From assembly GCA_038065335.1 (NCBI GenBank), contig JBBTRD010000013.1:1-42269 (forward strand): DNA of 42,269 nucleotides, given 5' to 3'. Below are positions 4,495 to 41,995 of this stretch, piece after piece. The position numbers were made by a program, and so were the translations under genes. The notes below the pieces were generated by a model. The model was not told the origin of the DNA. It made no database searches and was given only the letters and a program-made list of their open reading frames with translations. Each line of letters opens with the position of its first letter. The first letter of the stretch is position 1. Source of the stretch: Patescibacteria group bacterium. GTDB taxonomy: Bacteria > Patescibacteriota > Minisyncoccia > 2-02-FULL-40-12 > GWA2-44-9.

Positions 4495-5932
4495 AATATT
4501 TTTTGATTAAATTATTGAATTGCTCTCCCCGATCGTATTCGTTTTTAAATTTTTCAAAACTCTTGGAAGCCGGGGAAAATAGTATCACGGATTGAGGATA
4601 CTGACCAGCTTGCCCTGAACTCTGTTGAAGGGCTTTTTTGAAAGCCACTTCAACGCATTCTTGAAGCGAATCATAGATCGGGCAACTGGCCGCAAAATCA
4701 CCGAGGGCTAGTCGTATTTTTTCAGTCGCACTACCGGCCAGAAAAACAAGATTACTTGACTGAATAAATTGGGGAATAATTTTTCCTAATTCTACAAAAT
4801 CTAAATCCCGGTCTGTTCCGCCAGTGATGAGCACTGTCTCTAAACCGCCAAATCGCTTGAGGGCTTGAATAGCGCCTTCGGGCGAAGTGGCCGCAGTGTC
4901 GTTCACGACCGTAAGCGTATCGGTTTTTAGAATTATCTCTTGACGGAAAGGGATTTCGGGCAAACTATTAATCCGAAACTGAATGTCGGCCCAGGAACAT
5001 CCGGCCAGATGAGCTGAAAGAGCCGCCGCCAAAAGATTAGAGATATTGTGTTCACCGCGCATCAAAACAGAATCACTTAACATCAACGCTTTTTCTTTTA
5101 GACCCGCCTTTCGAAAATATACAGTTTTATCGCTTGACCAGACTCCATTAAGACCGACGGGCAAAATCTGACCAGAGAAATACCAAACCTTGGCCAATGG
5201 TTTTTGGGTTAATAAAAATTGGGTCCATTTGTTGTCATAATTCAGAATAAGATTATTGTCCGATGTCTGATATTTAAAAATATTTGCTTTTATTCGAGCG
5301 TATTCCTCTATAGTTTGATGACGATTAAGATGGTCTTGAAAAATATTAGTGATTACGGCTATTGCTGGGCCAGATATCGGCGTGCGGTCGAACAACTCTA
5401 AATGAAATGAGGAAATTTCGGCTACGGCCATTTCTAACCCGCCGGCCCGATCGAGAACTTTTAAAAATGGGTGAGTCAGCGAATTTCCGGCAATTGATGA
5501 TTTAAATTTCGGTTTAAGAAAATGTTCCACCCAAGTTGTTATGGTCGTCTTGCCTCGCGTTCCCGTGACCGCAATAATCGGCTTGTCCCGAGTTCCACCG
5601 AGAGACTTTTTAAACTCCTGAAAAAATATCGTCGCCTCATTGGCCACTTCTTTGCCCAGTTTAAACGCGTATTGAATAAATTCATTCCGAATTGAAACAT
5701 CGGGATTGATGACGATAATATCGTTTTCTTCGATATCTCGCATGGAATGACCGCCCAGACGCAATTCAACGTGGCCCTCGATTTTCCCCAACGAATCAGA
5801 GAGCTGTTCTTGAGTTTTTAAATCAGTTACCGTCACCCGCGCGCCCTGACGCAAAAGCCAATTCGTCGTCGCTAAACCGCCGCCCAGAATACCAAAACCG
5901 AACACGAGCACTTTTTTATCTTCAAAAATCAT
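4475..5932 (-). CDS. murD: UDP-N-acetylmuramoylalanine--D-glutamate ligase
   Basis: 485 aa with an N-terminal Rossmann GFGILGGG, the Mur ligase P-loop TGTRGKTT, and the motifs NDTAATSPEG and HNISNLLAA. Confidence 0.9.
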   Translation of the reverse strand: MIFEDKKVLVFGFGILGGGLATTNWLLRQGARVTVTDLKTQEQLSDSLGKIEGHVELRLGGHSMRDIEENDIIVINPDVSIRNEFIQYAFKLGKEVANEATIFFQEFKKSLGGTRDKPIIAVTGTRGKTTITTWVEHFLKPKFKSSIAGNSLTHPFLKVLDRAGGLEMAVAEISSFHLELFDRTPISGPAIAVITNIFQDHLNRHQTIEEYARIKANIFKYQTSDNNLILNYDNKWTQFLLTQKPLAKVWYFSGQILPVGLNGVWSSDKTVYFRKAGLKEKALMLSDSVLMRGEHNISNLLAAALSAHLAGCSWADIQFRINSLPEIPFRQEIILKTDTLTVVNDTAATSPEGAIQALKRFGGLETVLITGGTDRDLDFVELGKIIPQFIQSSNLVFLAGSATEKIRLALGDFAASCPIYDSLQECVEVAFKKALQQSSGQAGQYPQSVILFSPASKSFEKFKNEYDRGEQFNNLIKKYFESNPN

Positions 5933-6880: not shown

Positions 6881-6985
6881 AACTGGGAACCTGCTCTTTT
6901 GCCCAGACCCGGGGAACCAGTTCCGTCGGTTCCCCCGCTACGCGGGTCCCCCTCCGCTACTGGGCCAAAGAGCAGGTTCCCAGTT
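6881..6985 (+). repeat. GC-rich palindromic element, copy A (family also at 11713..11824 and 23826..23923)
   Basis: Conserved core GCCCAGACCCGGGGAACCAGTTCCGTCGGTTCCCC...CCCCTCCGCTACTGGGC, flanked by copy-specific self-complementary arms AACTGGGAACCTGCTCTTT / AAAGAGCAGGTTCCCAGTT. It fills the lemA-htpX spacer. Confidence 0.85.
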
Positions 6986-9620: not shown

Positions 9621-9649
9621 TTGTCAAGATACCGCCATAATGATATAAC
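9621..9649 (+). promoter_or_regulatory. Sigma-70-type promoter for the 9670..10146 gene
   Basis: TTGTCA, a 17-nt spacer, then TATAAC. GAGGAGG lies 7 nt before the ATG. Confidence 0.55.
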
Positions 9650-9669
9650 ATCCCCGAGGAGGTCAGGAC

Positions 9670-10146
9670 ATGAGTCAGCGCAATCACATAGACGGGTACG
9701 TGTCCCTTGAGCAACGTATCCCTACCGCAAATGAGGTACTCGCCAAAATCTGTGGAAATCGAGTGGGCCACACTACAATCGATATTCTAGAACTCAACCA
9801 GAGAACCTGCATCTGGCTCGAAAGAGCGGCATATGCCGCTTGGGCCACTTTGAACCTTCTCTATGAGTACTGCCCCGAAAGGAATCGGACCTTGCTCGCC
9901 GAAACTGCTGATGAACTACACGCGGTTATCAGGGGCGGGAGGGAAAACTATCCGAGACTTGTTGGTCCAGAGGCAAACCTGGCGGAACTCAAGAGTCACA
10001 TTGAAAATCTCCAACAAGCGGTTGCCCACGGCGGAAACATCCTAAACAACTCCGTTCCGCTTTGGCTCCCCGAGGAGATGTTGAAGCCGGCTCTCGATGT
10101 GCGTGATCTCTGCGACGAAGCCATTCGTCAACCCACCACATTTTGA
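9670..10146 (+). CDS. Hypothetical, probably all-helical protein (158 aa)
   Basis: Strong SD (GAGGAGG), its own promoter and terminator, C-ending codon preference and GC-richer than the neighbours. No family recognised. Confidence 0.55.
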   Translation: MSQRNHIDGYVSLEQRIPTANEVLAKICGNRVGHTTIDILELNQRTCIWLERAAYAAWATLNLLYEYCPERNRTLLAETADELHAVIRGGRENYPRLVGPEANLAELKSHIENLQQAVAHGGNILNNSVPLWLPEEMLKPALDVRDLCDEAIRQPTTF

Positions 10147-10197: not shown

Positions 10198-11249
10198 AGT
10201 CCTGAATCGGATTCAATATTCGTCGAAACGCCAAGATGACGAGTGGTGCTATTGTAGTGGTCAAGAATGATTCGTTCAAATGAATGGGGATGAAATTCGA
10301 GTTCAGTGTTTGTGTAAACGACTCGGCCACCCGAAGCATGAGTGGTGGGGTTATTGGTAATTCTTTTTTGTTGATACTGACGGGCCCAATTTTCAAGTGA
10401 GTCGCCGATTCTTCCTTGACCAATAAATTCAACTACTCGCGCCACACCTTTCAAAAATACGCTTGGCCGAACCGCCCGTCGAATCGTCTGTTGATGAGGC
10501 GTAAAATTATATACATATTTATTTATCCATAAATTTTCGACGAAGAACTTTCCTACTAAAGTCGAGTTAATCGCCATTGGCACCAGACGAGCATAAGTTT
10601 GGGCGTTGTACAGACTCTCGTGTTTTATCCTCAATGCATCAGTTGTGAGATAGTGATTAAAACAAAACTTATCCGGCGCAATGGTTTCATATCGCGTTCG
10701 TCGCGCGCCAATCAACAACGCCATCCCCGATAAAAACAACCGCGCCAGATACAATCGGCTGGGCTTAACCAAAACCAAAATATCAAAATCGCTTTCCGAA
10801 CTAGCCGTACCCAACGCCAACGAACCCGACACAAACATCCCTCGAATCCACGGCGCCATTTGAAGCCAGTAGGCTCGCCGCAAACAAAGTCGCCATTTTT
10901 GGGCCGAAATTTTTTCTCGCGCCAGACGCAAAGCCGACAATCCGCTCCGGCCCCGCAAATAATAAAATCCATTTTCTTCTTGAATTTGGTTCCGCTCGAG
11001 TAATCCTTCAACCGCTTCATATATATCTTTGAGCGTAATGGCTTCAACCACTTCAATATTCGGTTTGAGTCGTTGCGGGTTTACCAGATACCGATACAAC
11101 TCAAAAGCGCTCAAGGGATAATCAAGCCCGTCATAGTACGCCAGTGTCGCCAATATCGCGTCAGAAATTTGCACAACTGTATAGTAATTATTTGATCCAC
11201 AACAAGCAAGTACCCCATAAATTATTATCGTTATTTTATGTTCATACAA
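10188..11249 (-). CDS. Nucleotidyltransferase (Pol-beta superfamily) domain protein
   Basis: GSLALGTASSESDFDILVLV matches the NTase G[SG]-x(9-13)-DxD signature. The track start is a TTG at 11249; a GTG at 11174 (MQISDAILATLAYYD...) is an alternative start. Confidence 0.6.
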   Translation of the reverse strand: MYEHKITIIIYGVLACCGSNNYYTVVQISDAILATLAYYDGLDYPLSAFELYRYLVNPQRLKPNIEVVEAITLKDIYEAVEGLLERNQIQEENGFYYLRGRSGLSALRLAREKISAQKWRLCLRRAYWLQMAPWIRGMFVSGSLALGTASSESDFDILVLVKPSRLYLARLFLSGMALLIGARRTRYETIAPDKFCFNHYLTTDALRIKHESLYNAQTYARLVPMAINSTLVGKFFVENLWINKYVYNFTPHQQTIRRAVRPSVFLKGVARVVEFIGQGRIGDSLENWARQYQQKRITNNPTTHASGGRVVYTNTELEFHPHSFERIILDHYNSTTRHLGVSTNIESDSGLKK

Positions 11250-11264
11250 AACAAAAATAATACA

Positions 11265-11299
11265 TTTATATTTTAATACGATCGTATTATTTCATAAAG
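11265..11299. promoter_or_regulatory. Palindromic site, copy 1 of 3 (core AATACGATCGTATT at 11275..11288)
   Basis: TTTATATTTTAATACGATCGTATTATTTCATAAAG differs at 3 positions from the identical 34-mers at 27609..27642 and 28203..28237. It lies between the divergent NTase gene and uvrC. Confidence 0.7.
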
Positions 11300-11344: not shown

Positions 11345-12841
11345 TTGTCCTACCAAATGCTCGCTAACCAGCTCCGACAACTTATCGCCAAAACACCGGA
11401 TGCGCCGGGGATTTATTGTTTTCAGAACGAACATAAAAAAGATATCTACATTGGTAAAGCGTCTTCGATCAAGAAGCGATTAGTTTCATATACAAAGACG
11501 ACCGACCCACGGATTCAGAAGATGATTGCCGTGGCCGAACGCTTGACCCACATTAAAACCAACTCGGACATTGAAGCCTTGATATTGGAATCTCAACTTA
11601 TTAAACAACATCGTCCCCAGTTCAATATCATGCTCCGCGATGACAAACAGTATTTCTTCGTGGGTTTTACCGATACAGAATTTCCAAGACTCTTTTTAAC
11701 ACATCAACCCGAGTTGGCTGGCGACCTGCTCTTTGGCCCAGTAGCGGAGGGGGACCCGCGAAGCAGGGGAACCGACGGGACTGGTTCCCCGGGTCTGGGC
11801 AAAAGAGCACGGTCGCCAGCCAACTACATTGGGCCATTTACAGATGGGGCTGCATTGAAAACAACTTTGAAATTTTTGCGTAATATTTTTCCTTATTGCA
11901 CTTGTACCCAGAAGCACCACAATTTTTGTTTGAATTATCACTTAAACAAATGTATTGGTTTTTGTTGTATCAAAAACCCGGAATTACGGATTACGGATTA
12001 CGGATTAAAAAAAGTGAAAAAACAATATAACCAAAACACAAATGCTATTAAAGATATTTTGAGTGGTCACCATTCTTCGGTGATTAAAGAACTGAAAAAA
12101 GAAATGACCGCGACCGGTAAAAAACATGACTTCGATAACGCAATCGAATTACGATCCAAGCTCGAGCGTCTGAAGCGAGTTTTCCACAATGCTCAAATTA
12201 TTAAACATTCTGAAATCCTAAAATCATACAATTCTGGCCTGTCCGCGTTATTAAAAACGAAAAAACCAATTATTCATATTGAGGGTTATGACGTTTCCAA
12301 TATTCAAGGCGCCCACGCCACTGGCGCGATGGTCACGTTCGTTAACGGCCTCCCCGACAAAAATTTCTACCGCAAATTTAATACCCAATACAACAAGCCT
12401 AAAAATAATAAAGATGATAAAAACAAACTATTGCTAAATTCTTACGATCGTAAGAATTTAGCAAACAGCGCGAATGACACCGCCATGCTTGCCCAAATCC
12501 TTGAACGTCGCTTTAGGCATCCTGAATGGCCGTTCCCTGATTTGATATTAGTGGATGGCGGCAAGGGCCAAGTCAGTTCCGCGCTCACCGTTCTTAAAGA
12601 AATGAATATCTCTATTCCCGTAATCGGCCTCTCTAAAAACAAAAAACACATGGGTCATCAACTAATAATCCCCGGGCGCAAACAACCCCTCTCGCTCACC
12701 AAACTTAGTATCACCGATAAAAACTTACTGCTAACCATTGGCGCCGAAGCTCACCGTTTCGCCATAAGCTATTATCGAAAGCTTCACCGGTTGAATCTTT
12801 CTACTCAAAATGATATCATTAAAAACACTGGAAATGCTTAG
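11345..12841 (+). CDS. uvrC: Excinuclease ABC subunit C, short form without the C-terminal (HhH)2 domain, carrying an in-frame repeat insertion
   Basis: GIY-YIG motifs (PGIYCF...IYIGKA), a Cys-rich segment and the endonuclease-domain motifs IEGYDVSNIQG and LILVDGGKGQ. The protein ends shortly after AEAHRFAISYYRKLHR. The track start is TTG 11345; the first ATG is at 11357. Confidence 0.85.
   Translation: MSYQMLANQLRQLIAKTPDAPGIYCFQNEHKKDIYIGKASSIKKRLVSYTKTTDPRIQKMIAVAERLTHIKTNSDIEALILESQLIKQHRPQFNIMLRDDKQYFFVGFTDTEFPRLFLTHQPELAGDLLFGPVAEGDPRSRGTDGTGSPGLGKRARSPANYIGPFTDGAALKTTLKFLRNIFPYCTCTQKHHNFCLNYHLNKCIGFCCIKNPELRITDYGLKKVKKQYNQNTNAIKDILSGHHSSVIKELKKEMTATGKKHDFDNAIELRSKLERLKRVFHNAQIIKHSEILKSYNSGLSALLKTKKPIIHIEGYDVSNIQGAHATGAMVTFVNGLPDKNFYRKFNTQYNKPKNNKDDKNKLLLNSYDRKNLANSANDTAMLAQILERRFRHPEWPFPDLILVDGGKGQVSSALTVLKEMNISIPVIGLSKNKKHMGHQLIIPGRKQPLSLTKLSITDKNLLLTIGAEAHRFAISYYRKLHRLNLSTQNDIIKNTGNA
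11713..11824 (-). repeat. GC-rich palindromic element, copy B, inverted relative to A and C and inserted in frame in uvrC
   Basis: Its reverse complement matches the copy A core at most positions by eye. Self-complementary arms GTTGGCTGGCGACCTGCTCTTT / AAAGAGCACGGTCGCCAGCCAAC. It is translated as ...ELAGDLLFGPVAEGDPRSRGTDGTGSPGLGKRARSP... Confidence 0.85.
11983..12007 (+). repeat. Tandem heptamer (ATTACGG) x 3.6 inside uvrC
   Basis: GGAATTACGGATTACGGATTACGGATTAAAA encodes ELRITDYGLKK. Confidence 0.8.
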
Positions 12842-15774: not shown

Positions 15775-15875
15775 CAAAAATAGCTGAATAAATTCTCTAA
15801 CTACTTTATCTTAAAAATTAAATCTAAAAAATAAAATATTTTATATTTTAGATTTGAGATTTTAGATATTCAAGC

Positions 15876-19046: not shown

Positions 19047-19140
19047 CGACGAGCTTGTCGAAATACTAGTTCTTTGTAGAAAATCGAGACAATACGCATA
19101 ATTAACATATGTAACTTTAAAATAAGCTCGTACGAAACAA

Positions 19141-19677
19141 TTATAAAGTAAAGTATTTTATTAATTCTAATTTTTTAAACCCGACATCCTCAGCAGTAAT
19201 AATATCAACGTAATCTGAAATATCCAATTGCTCACAAATATCTCCAATTTCTTCGTGACAAGGATAAGGTAAAACGAAAACACTTTTTTGTAACATAAAA
19301 AACCCTAAATTTTTTAATTTTTTTCGAAATTTTATTCTTGCTAAATGTAACTCTTGAGGAATATCAAAAATTACTAATCGCCATTTTTTGTCCCATATTA
19401 GATAACGTCTTGGAAAATACCTACTAATAGCTCCTCGGGCCCATACAGATCCGTTTTGAGTAAGTTTAAATCGGCCCGGACTAACGTCTTTAAGCAGGCC
19501 TCGATATTTCAAGTTATAGACATTCTGATAAATCACATCTGGATCAATTCCGGCCATTCTTAAATCTTTATAATGCCAAGATTCACGAGCAAACATCTTA
19601 AATGGAGTATTTTTAAGATCTAAAGCTTCTAAAAAAGTGATAATAAATTTTTTAGATTTGTTAAGTTTGTTACCCAT
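19141..19677 (-). CDS. PaaX-like regulator: N-terminal wHTH plus a Cas2/VapD-like ferredoxin-fold domain (paralog 1)
   Basis: WDKKWRLVIFDIPQELHLARIKFRKKLKNLGFFMLQKSVFVLPYP matches the PaaX/Cas2-type beta-alpha-beta core. Paralogous to 27643..28194. Confidence 0.7.
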   Translation of the reverse strand: MGNKLNKSKKFIITFLEALDLKNTPFKMFARESWHYKDLRMAGIDPDVIYQNVYNLKYRGLLKDVSPGRFKLTQNGSVWARGAISRYFPRRYLIWDKKWRLVIFDIPQELHLARIKFRKKLKNLGFFMLQKSVFVLPYPCHEEIGDICEQLDISDYVDIITAEDVGFKKLELIKYFTL

Positions 19678-19682
19678 ACATA

Positions 19683-19726
19683 TAATACTTTATTATAGAC
19701 TCGTACGAGTCTATAATAAAGTATTA
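19683..19726. promoter_or_regulatory. 44-nt perfect palindrome immediately upstream of PaaX-like paralog 1 (candidate operator)
   Basis: TAATACTTTATTATAGACTCGTACGAGTCTATAATAAAGTATTA, checked base by base, 6 nt from the start codon. Confidence 0.7.
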
Positions 19727-23826: not shown

Positions 23827-23923
23827 TTGGAATCGTCCCTTCGCCCCAGACCCGGGGAACCAGTCCCGTCGGTTCCCCCAGAGGGGCCCCCTCCGCTACT
23901 GGGGCTTAAGGGACAATTCCAAC
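23826..23923 (+). repeat. GC-rich palindromic element, copy C (ssb-rpsR spacer)
   Basis: Core GCCCCAGACCCGGGGAACCAGTCCCGTCGGTTCCCCCAGAGGGGCCCCCTCCGCTACTGGGGC with the copy-specific arms GTTGGAATCGTCCC / GGGACAATTCCAAC. Confidence 0.85.
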
Positions 23924-27549: not shown

Positions 27550-27608
27550 AATGCTAATTATTCCTTATTTATAATTCAAAATCAATACCCATATCACCCA
27601 TATCCCTA

Positions 27609-27642
27609 TTTATATATTAATACGATCGTATTGTTTTATAAA
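27609..27642. promoter_or_regulatory. Palindromic site, copy 2 of 3 (core 27619..27632), abutting the stop of PaaX-like paralog 2 and upstream of ftsK
   Basis: TTTATATATTAATACGATCGTATTGTTTTATAAA is identical over 34 nt to 28203..28236. Confidence 0.75.
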
Positions 27643-28194
27643 TCAAACCTTGAACTTTATTTTCAAATCTTTATCGTAATCCATGTGGTCTATTGTTACA
27701 AATCTTGTGTGTTGTTTTATATTTTCTTCAAACAATAAATCTTTTAGAAATACGGGAATTGGGTAGGGATATATCCAGGCACTCTTTTGAAATTCTTTAA
27801 AACCGATAGCCCGTAAAATTAGTCGCAGATAATCTCGATGTTTTCGTTTTTTCTCGGGAATATCAAAAAATACTAACCGCCATTTGCCATCCCATTTTAT
27901 TTTTTCTTTTTTATATATACCAGTTTCAGCGTTTATATAAGCAAAAAATGCTTCTTTTTTACCTTGGTCAGTAAGATAATATAGACTATTTTTTCTTTCA
28001 ATTAACTTATTTTTCCGTAAATTGCATAAGGCAACATCGTAAGTGATTCTTCGTCTTCCGTAACAATATTTACGGGCATATTTGTGAGGAAAGAACACCC
28101 GCGCTGGTCCTTCTTGAATGCTCCATAAAATTGCCAAAATAGTTCTGGGCACAGAAAGAAGTATTTTCGCACTTTTGGCATTGTTTCCGAACAT
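27643..28194 (-). CDS. PaaX-like regulator: wHTH plus Cas2/VapD-like domain (paralog 2)
   Basis: WDGKWRLVFFDIPEKKRKHRDYLRLILRAIGFKEFQKSAWIYPYP. Same architecture as 19141..19677. Confidence 0.7.
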   Translation of the reverse strand: MFGNNAKSAKILLSVPRTILAILWSIQEGPARVFFPHKYARKYCYGRRRITYDVALCNLRKNKLIERKNSLYYLTDQGKKEAFFAYINAETGIYKKEKIKWDGKWRLVFFDIPEKKRKHRDYLRLILRAIGFKEFQKSAWIYPYPIPVFLKDLLFEENIKQHTRFVTIDHMDYDKDLKIKFKV

Positions 28195-28202
28195 ATAGTC
28201 TC

Positions 28203-28237
28203 TTTATATATTAATACGATCGTATTGTTTTATAAAG
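28203..28237. promoter_or_regulatory. Palindromic site, copy 3 of 3 (core 28213..28226), 9 nt upstream of the paralog 2 start
   Basis: TTTATATATTAATACGATCGTATTGTTTTATAAAG is positioned as an autoregulatory operator or promoter. Confidence 0.75.
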
Positions 28238-28271: not shown

Positions 28272-28303
28272 TATAAAAAGAAAACGGCGTCCGAAGACGC
28301 CGT
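28272..28303 (-). terminator. Rho-independent terminator closing the GC-rich island transcript
   Basis: Minus strand reads ACGGCGTC-TTCG-GACGCCGT followed by TTTTCTTTTT. Confidence 0.8.
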
Positions 28304-28507
28304 GGAAGTGGTTGGGGGTTGGTTTGCGGCTGTATCCCCCGGGGTCGCCAGCCTGTAGCCTACCTGTGCGCCGAGACTTCCCGCTCGGCGATTGATGGTT
28401 CAACTACGCATTTAGTTTCCTTCTGCTTTTCAGGCAAGAAAGAGTTGGTCTCCGTCGCGGATCACCTTTCGGCTTAACCCGCGACATGCCCCTCCGAGGC
28501 CAATCAA

Positions 28508-28744
28508 CTATCGACCGTGAAACGCCGTGACGCGCGGATCGAGCCGCGAGTCGCTGTCGGCCGCCGCCCCGACGATCCAGGCCCGGTAATTCCACCGCGC
28601 CGCCGTAACGGGTTTGATGCCCCGACGGGCCAACTGAGCTTTGGCCTGCCTCAGCGTCTCGACCTGGGTCTGTTCCCAGGTAGTCGCCGGTTTGATCCCG
28701 GCAACCATGAGCGCCGGCTTTGCGAAATCGAAGATGGTGGGCAT
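28508..28744 (-). CDS. Hypothetical 78-aa protein encoded in a high-GC island
   Basis: ATG at 28744 preceded by AGGAGA 6 nt upstream. By hand count 62 of 78 codons end in G/C against about 55% G/C at position 2, a coding-like gradient. The track ORF 28508..28807 includes a 5' extension that I do not believe. Confidence 0.5.
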   Translation of the reverse strand: MPTIFDFAKPALMVAGIKPATTWEQTQVETLRQAKAQLARRGIKPVTAARWNYRAWIVGAAADSDSRLDPRVTAFHGR

Positions 28745-28823
28745 AGTTGTCTCCTGCAGATTGTGAAGTTCCTGACCGGCCTGTCTGTCGCCTGACAGAC
28801 TAAGCAAAGCTGATTGTATTTAC

Positions 28824-28852
28824 GGTATAGCATGTATTCAGCACAAAGTCAA
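28824..28852 (-). promoter_or_regulatory. Sigma-70-type promoter of the island transcript
   Basis: Minus strand reads TTGACT, a 17-nt spacer, then TATACC. The 5' UTR contains the hairpin GTCTGTC-AGGC-GACAGAC. Confidence 0.55.
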
Positions 28853-28880
28853 TAGCTAAAAATGACCTCTTTTGCCACCT

Positions 28881-28908
28881 TAAAACCGCCCTTTTAGGGG
28901 CGGTTTTA
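28881..28908 (-). terminator. Terminator downstream of rpoC (bidirectional hairpin)
   Basis: AAAACCGCCC-loop-GGGCGGTTTT with U-tracts on both strands, about 140 nt after the rpoC stop. Confidence 0.7.
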
Positions 28909-29047
28909 AGTTATGATAGATTCAGGGGTCTGTATAAATATGGTTGAGTTTAAGGCGGTTTCGAGGAACGGAGTAAGCGATACTACAAGGTATCGCGGCG
29001 AGTACCGCAGAAACCAACGCCGAAATCGACCAGATTTATAAGACCTT

Positions 29048-41600: not shown

Positions 41601-41995
41601 CTGGCGGCTACCTACTTTCGCCGGATGAGTCCGACTATCATGGGCCTTAAAGGATTTCGTCCCGCACTAAAACAAGCATATGCCACTTCATGCTTCCGCA
41701 TGAGGCATAACAGAGGATGCTTGTTTGGTGTCGGGACTTCGCTTCTGAGCCTACCCCGCACCGAATGAACAACCAGTCATAATCACTGTAGGGCAGCTAC
41801 CTACTTTCGCCGGATGAGTCCGACTATCATGGGCTCCGCGAGATTTCACTTCTGAGTTCGGGATGGGATCAGGTGGAGCACTCGCGACATAGCTACCTTA
41901 CACTAACTACGACACTAACTTTGTTCATTCTGGTGCGGGGTTCGGTCCGCCAACTGGCGGAGGGATCAGGTGGATTATCTAAAGATAGCCACCAA
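41601..41995 (-). rRNA. Outer 5S-like gene interrupted by three hairpin insertions, one of which carries a complete 5S
   Basis: 5' half GGTGGCTATCTTTAGATAATCCACCTGATCCC..CCGAAC and 3' half CTCAGAAGCGAAG..GAAATCCTTTAAGGCCCATGATAGTCGGACTCATCCGGCGAAAGTAGGTAGCCGCCAG. Helices I and II are compensated relative to the inner copy. Confidence 0.5.
41786..41903 (-). rRNA. rrf: 5S ribosomal RNA (canonical, inner copy)
   Basis: Minus strand reads GGTAGCTATGTCGCGAGTGCTCCACCTGATCCCATCCCGAACTCAGAAGTGAAATCTCGCGGAGCCCATGATAGTCGGACTCATCCGGCGAAAGTAGGTAGCTGCC. The termini pair as helix I. Confidence 0.88.

Follow-up and report, generated by a model that had tools for sequence, protein, structure and literature searches.

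The X1 gene and its 34-bp sites

The stretch of DNA analysed here, called the window, is contig JBBTRD010000013.1 (42,269 nucleotides, nt) from assembly GCA_038065335.1 of a Patescibacteria group bacterium. Between rpoC and ftsK, the minus strand encodes a short PaaX-like protein of 183 amino acids (aa), which we call X1 (27643..28194) and which was characterized from its open reading frame (ORF), its Pfam match, an AlphaFold2 model, and a fold search. The gene stands between two copies of a site of 34 base pairs (bp), TTTATATATTAATACGATCGTATTGTTTTATAAA. A window-wide match scan placed this 34-mer with 0 mismatches at 28203..28236, upstream of X1 (site U), and at 27609..27642, downstream of it (site D; 34/34 identical to U). 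A preliminary description of this DNA had reported identical 34-mers flanking a gene for a winged helix-turn-helix (wHTH) plus Cas2-like protein, and the exact matches at both places bear this out. The distances given there need small corrections. D does abut the X1 stop codon (0 nt) and ends 59 nt before the ftsK ATG (27549), while U ends 8 nt, not 9, before the X1 ATG. The third copy reported from the region between uvrC and a nucleotidyltransferase (NTase) gene is also present, at 11265..11298 with 3 mismatches; it is 34 nt long, not 35.

No match to the 34-mer was found in any of 100 dinucleotide shuffles of the window. The site is an imperfect palindrome, with a perfect 14-bp core (AATACGATCGTATT), a 4-nt asymmetric stretch on each side, and 6-bp outer inverted repeats (TTTATA/TATAAA) that lie 22 bp apart. 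The core was rightly described as a perfect palindrome. It occurs exactly three times in the window against an expectation of 0.23, solely within the three 34-mer sites, and recA therefore has no site, as had also been stated. Since U and D share their asymmetry in the same orientation, they are direct repeats. The likeliest reason for their identity is that the copies arose recently or have undergone gene conversion with each other. The window derives from a Yanofskybacteria-like Patescibacteria population of ultra-small bacteria, sampled in Hainich groundwater metagenomes, and both exact copies were found in 8/8 of its strain contigs. As single-stranded DNA (ssDNA), the 34-mer forms a hairpin no better than shuffles do (-1.3 kcal/mol, z +0.3), so ideas about cruciforms have to rest on other members of the family.

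The repeat also leaves its mark on assemblies. In one contig (L003, about 9640-9990), the repeated 34-mer has caused a scaffolding artefact, in which a duplicated stretch, ending within the palindrome, borders a run of N. Contigs L006-L008 start 34-47 nt upstream of U; the 34-mer repeat thus breaks assemblies. The contigs built from short reads stop at rpoD and the rRNA operon, and a 108-kb long-read contig has frameshift errors in the part around X1.

X1 is made up of an N-terminal winged helix, a long connecting helix, and a Cas2-like ferredoxin domain of the order beta-alpha-beta-beta-alpha-beta (AlphaFold2, mean predicted local distance difference test score 85.8). The winged-helix elements in the model are helices at residues 15-26, 38-43, and 49-61 and strands at 65-68 and 71-74. 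At the sequence level, the match to PF20803 (PaaX_M, the Cas2-like middle domain of PaaX) is strong, with E 2.2e-19 and 69.8 bits over a cut-off of 24, and the wHTH matches in Pfam fall below cut-off. X1 scores 49 bits against the PaaX equivalog TIGR02277, for which the cut-off is 264.55. There is no Pfam match to PaaX_C, the C-terminal effector domain of PaaX, and the protein stops at residue 183; nor did Pfam return a LexA-type S24 peptidase or another sensor domain. In a Foldseek search, E. coli PaaX (8a39) and Rv0674 (3kfw) matched best among PDB folds, over the full length, and after them came many Cas2 structures and VapD. Cas2 profiles themselves are approached but not reached (Pfam, 16.2 bits with a cut-off of 23.8; TIGR01573, 20.9 bits with a cut-off of 24.5). 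The earlier account of a wHTH joined to a Cas2-like domain is supported by the PF20803 match, the AlphaFold2 model, and the Foldseek results.

An exhaustive profile search at E <= 1e-10 gave a family of 2,985 clusters at 50 per cent identity, of which the best 150 are mostly about 170-230 aa long. Public records label members 'PaaX', and a 90 per cent cluster-mate of X2, the paralogue described below, is named 'CRISPR-associated endonuclease Cas2' at NCBI. Our membership tests support neither name. Relatives were absent from IMG/VR, no PHROG matched, and PADLOC returned solely Cas2 profiles, so these searches gave no sign of a viral, phage, or defence origin. Full-text literature searches found no account of cassettes of this kind.

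A terminator-like hairpin with a T run (28284..28303, minus strand) lies upstream of the cassette, and X1 therefore needs a promoter of its own. Candidate -10 boxes for X1 lie inside U and just upstream of it. On the other side, a candidate ftsK promoter (TTGATT-17-AATAAT; 27557..27585, minus strand) is placed by consensus match 7 nt before the ftsK ATG, and a promoter-like consensus match for uvrC is likewise 7 nt before its start codon. D and the solo third site each lie just upstream of the -35 element of these matches, for ftsK and uvrC respectively. D falls at about -42 to -75 relative to the predicted leaderless ftsK start, and the solo site is 19 nt from the ancestral NTase ATG.

Palindromes at the ends of related genes

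We assembled a family set of 70 loci with a degenerate-pattern scan of one genome per species. The set covers many Patescibacteria lineages, and some genomes carry two or three copies. Eight residues (W101, D102, W105, R106, D111, R120, Q136, and S138) are invariant in all 70 members. They correspond to the Cas2-type signature, namely the Asp that ends beta-1, the Arg, and QxS. The N-terminal half is poorly conserved across the family.

Bracketing by palindromes is a family-wide trait. A finder for ungapped palindromes (arm at least 12, within 200 nt of the gene) was applied to 69 genes from Patescibacteria metagenome-assembled genomes and located a palindrome upstream of the start in 30/69, downstream of the stop in 32/69, and on both sides in 21/69; these counts are underestimates, as sites with imperfect centres such as ACGGTCGT are missed. 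In 2.99 Mb of fetched loci, the density of palindromes with arms of at least 14 is 1.25/kb in the 120 nt next to family gene ends and 0.031/kb in the remaining DNA. Put differently, the 36 kb near family gene ends hold 45 of the 137 long palindromes, a 40-fold enrichment. Similarity between the upstream and downstream copies ends exactly at the palindrome edges (34/34 in the window, 45/45 in L032, 38/38 in L049, and 24/24 in L039), so the repeated unit is the site itself and not a larger duplication. Where sites are asymmetric, the two copies carry the asymmetry in direct orientation. In one member (L030), the arms at the two ends are quite different, each end being a near-perfect palindrome.

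The centres follow a simple rule. All 45 palindromes beside family genes (45/45), with 11 centre types among them, have C at -3 and G at +3 (C-NNNN-G), the inner four bases being GATC, GGCC, CATG, ATAT, AATT, TATA, or GTAC. The commonest centre is ACGATCGT, and the centre GCAGCTGC on the tree fits the rule as well. The outer arms follow the protein tree: L038 groups with L047, L067 with L068, and L009, L010, L011, and L015 with one another, and X2 goes with L049, which has the same TCGTACGA centre. We counted 4 palindromes centred on ACGATCGT in the 42 kb of the window and 35 in the 722 kb that surround the 70 family genes. The sister loci (105 kb) had none, and ftsK loci from other Patescibacteria (785 kb) had 1. 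Nearly all of those in the 722 kb adjoin the gene, and 2 solo copies lie in the window.

When the 70 family genes are aligned on their ATG, the -10-like motif TAnnnT peaks at -12/-13 (22 genes). This position fits leaderless transcripts, in which case the upstream palindrome covers the core promoter, roughly from -38 to -1. Many members have the arrangement CGATCG-TGnTAnnnT, that is, an extended -10 directly after the centre. The upstream copy thus usually lies over the gene's own leaderless promoter, which suggests autoregulation, and U is probably an operator overlapping the promoter of X1.

Two groups of loci depart from the usual layout. In L010 (5850-5955), two palindromes lie upstream of the gene, and the one next to the ATG looks chimeric. 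Its counterpart in L009 (5953-5988) has the same appearance, with a left arm of one palindrome type and a right arm of another and with no reciprocal partner. A second group (L013, L014, L016, L017, L018, L021, L025, and L239) is a subfamily always paired with a divergent gene for a 76-aa helix-turn-helix protein of the MerR/excisionase type. These loci have a downstream palindrome only, which lies upstream of the TTGAC-type promoter of a gene for a large tetratricopeptide repeat (TPR) protein.

The window contains a second cassette of this family at 19114-19726, with a palindrome different from that of X1. Its gene, X2, encodes a 178-aa paralogue of X1 (19141..19677, minus strand) with 35 per cent identity in the Cas2-like half. 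X2 passes the cut-offs of Pfam Cas2 (27 bits) and TIGR01573 (32.7 bits), in both cases over beta-1/alpha-1 only, and matches the PADLOC Cas2 profile with E 2.5e-9. A perfect 44-bp palindrome with the centre CTCGTACGAG lies at 19683..19726, 5 nt upstream of the X2 ATG. It has strong hairpin potential as ssDNA (-15.6 kcal/mol, z -9.8). The downstream copy is degenerate and spans the X2 stop codon (19114..19157); it was recognized by a gapped local alignment with a score of 43, against a shuffle maximum of 32.

One further perfect palindrome, of 34 bp (TTGCTAAATTCTTACGATCGTAAGAATTTAGCAA; 12431..12464), is internal to uvrC. It has the CGATCG centre of the X1 site with different arms and folds well (-12.7 kcal/mol, z -7.5). 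The palindrome sits within an in-frame, A-rich insertion of 69 nt (23 aa, QYNKPKNNKDDKNKLLLNSYDRKNLANS; 12386-12470) that is specific to the window and absent from three sister species. The same gene also contains, in frame, one copy of a GC-rich repeat of about 97 nt, which adds about 32-40 aa (ELAGDLLFGPVAEGDPRSRGTDGTGSPGLGKRARSPAN) and is common to the sister L159 and absent from L161 and L162. Copies of this repeat lie at 6887-6983, 11718-11814, and 23829-23903, and the repeat is itself an inverted repeat (6881-6906/6960-6985).

Presence and absence among sister species

The preliminary description had proposed comparing the order recA-ftsK-x-rpoC in relatives; sister species keep the gene order and have neither X1 nor its sites. 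Three sisters with FtsK 85-89 per cent identical to that of the window (L079, L080, and L081) retain rpoC, a small ORF, a GC-rich stretch, the terminator, and ftsK. X1 and the palindrome are absent from the ftsK locus in all three. In L080, the 12-mer TAGGGATATGGG contains the ATG of ftsK. The window has this 12-mer (27597..27608, minus strand) directly after D, where alignment with L080 identifies it as what remains of the ancestral start region of ftsK. On its right side, the insertion therefore ends where the palindrome ends.

The other two sisters show something else at this position. L079 (about 4760-5000) and L081 (about 4850-5000) carry an element of about 150 nt that resembles a miniature inverted-repeat transposable element (MITE), with terminal inverted repeats CCAGGTAGTGAAAATYCGAC. 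It lies exactly at the ftsK start codon, and the ATG is duplicated. The start of ftsK has thus received insertions that differ between sister species. A tandem GATATGGGT GATATGGGT of the window (27588-27605, minus strand), after D, may be a scar related to this MITE-like element.

Between the NTase gene and ftsK, sisters recovered with a TrpRS probe (89-96 per cent identical) match the window in gene order. RecA of the sister species is 93-95 per cent identical. At the X2 locus, the stops of trpS and PMM are 2-5 nt apart in L159 and L160, compared with 736 nt containing X2 and its palindromes in the window. The solo 11265 site is part of a stretch of about 85 nt that is absent from L159, L161, and L162. 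No family ORF was found in the sister loci, and all four palindromes are missing there (0 in 105 kb versus 4 in 42 kb). The solo-site insertion also seems to have remodelled the 5' end of the NTase gene. An ATG homologous to the sisters' start (11240-11249) meets a stop after four codons, the open frame begins at a TTG in another frame, and the first ~25 residues are not conserved.

A parallel case comes from tsaD. Four species (L253, L255, L257, and L263) have tRNA, promoter, and tsaD with no cassette and no palindrome. In four other species, the cassette stands between the upstream part of the promoter and the tsaD ATG, a linkage that is stable across species. Composition also sets the cassette genes apart, with GC contents of 33 per cent for X1 and 30 per cent for X2 compared with 45.5 +/- 3.0 per cent for 19 core genes. 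We did not see a near-identical cassette in two different contexts. An origin of the palindrome in situ, drawn from the likeness of the ancestral ftsK and tsaD -10 elements to the right arm of D, was also considered and judged unreliable in AT-rich DNA.

The cassette had alternatively been described as mobile, with the 11265 site as its unoccupied target. The first half of this proposal agrees with a discrete, low-GC indel that is absent from sisters at two loci of the window and at tsaD loci in other genomes. The second half fails, as empty sites hold no palindrome, the 11265 site has itself been inserted, and the flanks are not chimeras of the attL/attR type.

In the interval between rpoC and the cassette (28290-29047), a small conserved ORF (28508..28807) encodes 99 aa without a Pfam match. 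A GC-rich, conserved non-coding stretch (about 28290-28500) ends in the terminator. Both are kept in the sister species. Rfam gave nothing credible in the GC-rich region between rpoC and the cassette. In the strain contig L005, a deletion of ~690 nt removes the whole of this small-ORF and GC-rich interval.

Function and alternative explanations

The reading we prefer, at a probability of roughly 0.5, is that X1 and its sites form a portable, autoregulated operator-gene-operator module that was inserted in this lineage in front of ftsK. The protein encoded between the two 34-mers would bind them as its cognate sites, and site, gene, and site together would make one discrete, AT-rich accessory module, acquired in the lineage and placed between the terminator on the rpoC side and the start of ftsK. 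X1 would be a minimal dimeric DNA binder of the PaaX type. Its variable winged helices would probably read the outer inverted repeats TTTATA...TATAAA, with about 28 bp between centres, and the conserved Cas2-like dimer would probably lie over the dyad centre C-GATC-G. Since U overlaps the X1 promoter, with a very short leader or none, X1 may repress itself. With D just upstream of its promoter, ftsK may have become subject to X1 as an incidental result of the insertion; the solo copy may likewise influence the divergent NTase/uvrC promoters. Any coupling of ftsK and of NTase/uvrC to X1 may thus be a lineage-specific side effect and not an ancient regulon. The exact repeats, the fold of the protein, bracketing across the family, the indel status, the low GC, and the placement of the sites relative to starts were observed, and binding, repression, the assignment of domains to parts of the site, and effects on ftsK and uvrC are what we infer.

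Among known systems, the function would be most like the autoregulation of PaaX, the homology to Cas2 lies in the C-terminal domain, and the layout recalls REPIN-RAYT, pdif, and IS200 without their enzymes and without the site behaviour that defines them. PaaX (8a39, 3l09), the phenylacetyl-CoA-responsive repressor of paa operons, likewise has a winged helix followed by a Cas2-like middle domain. The E. coli protein represses its own promoter and recognizes TGATTC-N27-GAATCA, a long palindrome whose half-sites are far apart (PMC9493321). Inverted repeats with long spacing are thus characteristic of the family, and the X1 site, judged by its sequence, appears compatible in geometry. The differences are also clear. 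X1 has 183 aa and lacks the effector domain, whereas PaaX has ~305-316 aa; there are no paa genes in the window; the X1 family retains the Cas2 signature far more strongly, and its gene is bracketed by two sites; and, in Patescibacteria, the X1 cassette acts as an indel within arrays of core genes. With Cas2 and VapD, X1 shares the ferredoxin-like fold, the beta-1 Asp, the Arg, and QxS, and X2 adds profile matches. Unlike Cas2, X1 is fused to a wHTH, has no cas1 or CRISPR array in the window, and has two repeats around its gene instead of an array.

Several observations weigh against a simple operator module. Many members have dyad symmetry over the whole 34-58 bp, and the two sites of one gene may differ by compensated double changes. 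There are 30 compensated changes versus 71 one-sided ones, ~10x the rough expectation from independent change. Arm complementarity is higher within sites (539/632) than across them (485/632). Reading of half-sites by one protein does not predict compensated symmetry over the whole length. Possible causes of the symmetry are selection for hairpins or cruciforms, a copying mechanism, or neutral quasipalindrome correction by template switching. The last is a known mutational process by which symmetric arms could persist even if they had no function. The uvrC coding sequence contains a perfect palindrome with the centre of the X1 site. The Cas2 signature residues are invariant in the 70 members, which exceeds the apparent need of a dimerization scaffold, and promoter-like matches in this AT-rich DNA are no commoner than in shuffles. 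Last, 9/31 downstream palindromes have a convergent gene as their neighbour, and loci lacking such a palindrome show convergent neighbours in the same proportion. For this reason, we rejected the idea that the downstream copy is, as a general rule, the operator of the next gene.

The main alternative, which we regard as unlikely and for which the evidence is circumstantial, is a minimal element that moves itself. The wHTH-Cas2-like protein would be a site-specific nuclease or strand-transferase acting on the C-NNNN-G centre, perhaps in hairpins or cruciforms, and would excise, copy, or insert the unit; solo palindromes would be its footprints or non-autonomous copies. This would account for a discrete indel at several independent loci, for the low GC of the cassette, and for solo palindromes, one of them in frame in uvrC. 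It would also fit upstream and downstream copies that are up to 100 per cent identical while orthologous sites diverge fast, and a symmetry upheld by compensated changes. The C-NNNN-G pattern of all 45 palindromes gives a closing pair that favours hairpins, and the catalytic-type Asp of Cas2 is invariant along with the other signature residues; X2 matches Cas2 profiles at E 2.5e-9. However, no near-identical cassette was seen in two contexts, the linkage to tsaD is stable across species, and palindromes away from family genes are rare, those centred on ACGATCGT numbering about 0 to 1 per Mb outside the X loci and few inside. Empty sites bear neither a footprint nor a target palindrome, the X1 34-mer has nearly no hairpin potential, and no relatives were found in viral contigs or PHROGs. 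Template-switch correction could produce symmetric arms without function. It also counts against this alternative that Cas2 is not known to transpose anything by itself.

Somewhat more doubtful is a hitherto unrecognized kind of minimal selfish element made up of these short proteins of Patescibacteria and their C-NNNN-G-centred palindromes. A Cas2-fold protein would recognize the palindromes at the ends of the element and process them itself, for instance by nicking the dyad or forming a hairpin there. Such a unit of ~0.6 kb, with outward-facing promoters, would insert at the promoters and ends of core genes and would represent a free-living relative of Cas2 with its own repeats.

Two known kinds of element offer partial models for a unit of this size and layout. 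Like REP/REPIN-RAYT systems, the cassette has a single-copy gene flanked on both sides by cognate palindromes, compensated changes, and some solo copies. Yet X1 is not an HUH/Y1 transposase (Pfam and NCBIfam give solely PaaX_M and Cas2, and the fold is that of PaaX and Cas2), distant copies are rare in the about 3 Mb examined in contrast to tens to hundreds per genome, and sites of the X1 type overlap the promoter. IS200/IS605 elements are similar in size (about 0.6-0.7 kb), likewise carry one small gene, and have a structured palindrome at either end. The X1 unit differs from them in lacking HUH TnpA and TnpB, and its ends are fully symmetric and identical to each other, with no sign of strand-specific hairpins. 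In-frame sequences such as the uvrC palindrome and the GC-rich 97-nt repeat in a housekeeping gene recall Rickettsia palindromic elements, but a single CGATCG-centred case was seen, and only the shared centre links it to the cassettes.

We think it quite improbable that a host site-specific recombinase moves the cassette, with X1 as cargo or as an accessory that bends DNA. The palindromes would then be loxP/FRT-like sites (13-8-13) or dif-like (pdif) sites, and the 34 bp can indeed be read as 13-bp inverted arms around an 8-bp centre, ACGATCGT. In pdif, loxP, and FRT systems, single genes also lie between partly palindromic sites of 28-34 bp with inverted arms and a 6-8-bp centre, and here the direct repeats are limited to the site, solo sites exist, and the cassette adjoins ftsK. 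The centre of the X1 site, however, is symmetric, and such a palindromic spacer gives no directionality. Annotation and a repeat search of the 42-kb window found no recombinase, no transposase, no cas1 or other cas genes, and no CRISPR array. The empty loci of the sisters have no site with which to recombine, and the two copies are not reciprocal chimeras, as the within-site and cross-site complementarity shows. The ftsK neighbourhood is specific to this species, other members lying beside tsaD, dus, TPR genes, and others. The tight one-to-one link between site and family argues that the protein, and not a general host enzyme, owns the site.

The two remaining explanations are very improbable. 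The first is a conserved SOS-like regulon for DNA repair and segregation, in which X1 would control ftsK and uvrC. It draws on the sites upstream of ftsK and in the divergent NTase/uvrC region and is already largely refuted as a conserved regulon, since sisters with the same genes have neither the protein nor the sites, recA has no site, the nearest homologues stand in other contexts (tsaD, dus, and a TPR gene), and X1 has no LexA-type peptidase or sensor domain. Of the earlier proposal of an autoregulated repressor with a repair regulon, only the autoregulation remains plausible, given that upstream palindromes in the family typically cover the promoter and that PaaX provides a precedent. The second explanation is an element acting at the RNA level, with the palindromes as 5' and 3' stem-loops of the X1 mRNA that serve stability, processing, or translational autoregulation by a Cas2 domain resembling an RNA recognition motif; sites at both ends of the coding sequence would fit, as would the RNase activity reported for Cas2/VapD relatives in the titles of PDB entries 3exc and 3ui3, but G:U-compatible pairs show no strand asymmetry over more than 60 sites (sense versus antisense 26:24 upstream and 29:19 downstream), the position of the -10 implies that transcription mostly starts after the upstream palindrome, and the X1 site folds weakly.

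Patescibacteria, also known as the Candidate Phyla Radiation (CPR), have tiny genomes and very few recognizable regulators. If the cassettes are portable promoter-operator units, they would offer a simple route for rewiring ftsK, tsaD, and uvrC between sister species. If the protein processes its own palindromes, the family would constitute a novel class of mobile elements and offer a living model of the role of Cas2-fold proteins before the advent of CRISPR.

The genes named around the cassette were confirmed as recA, ftsK, rpoC, rpoB, uvrC, and a nucleotidyltransferase (NTP_transf_2) gene. The remainder of the window encodes core machinery, including rpoD, dnaG, murD, groES/EL, RNase J, trpS, ychF, ssb, ftsW, and 5S/23S rRNA. 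Between the tRNA-Leu(CAG) and RNase J genes, a 60-bp AT-rich imperfect palindrome (15808-15867) is also a tandem of 7-/14-nt units. Near-exact short duplications (41435-41459/41584-41608 and 41603-41645/41792-41834) lie beside the 5S rRNA (41788-41900) and suggest a second, incomplete copy of the 5S gene. An ORF for a LAGLIDADG homing endonuclease (L268, 234-827) is found in strain contigs, outside the window on the 23S side.

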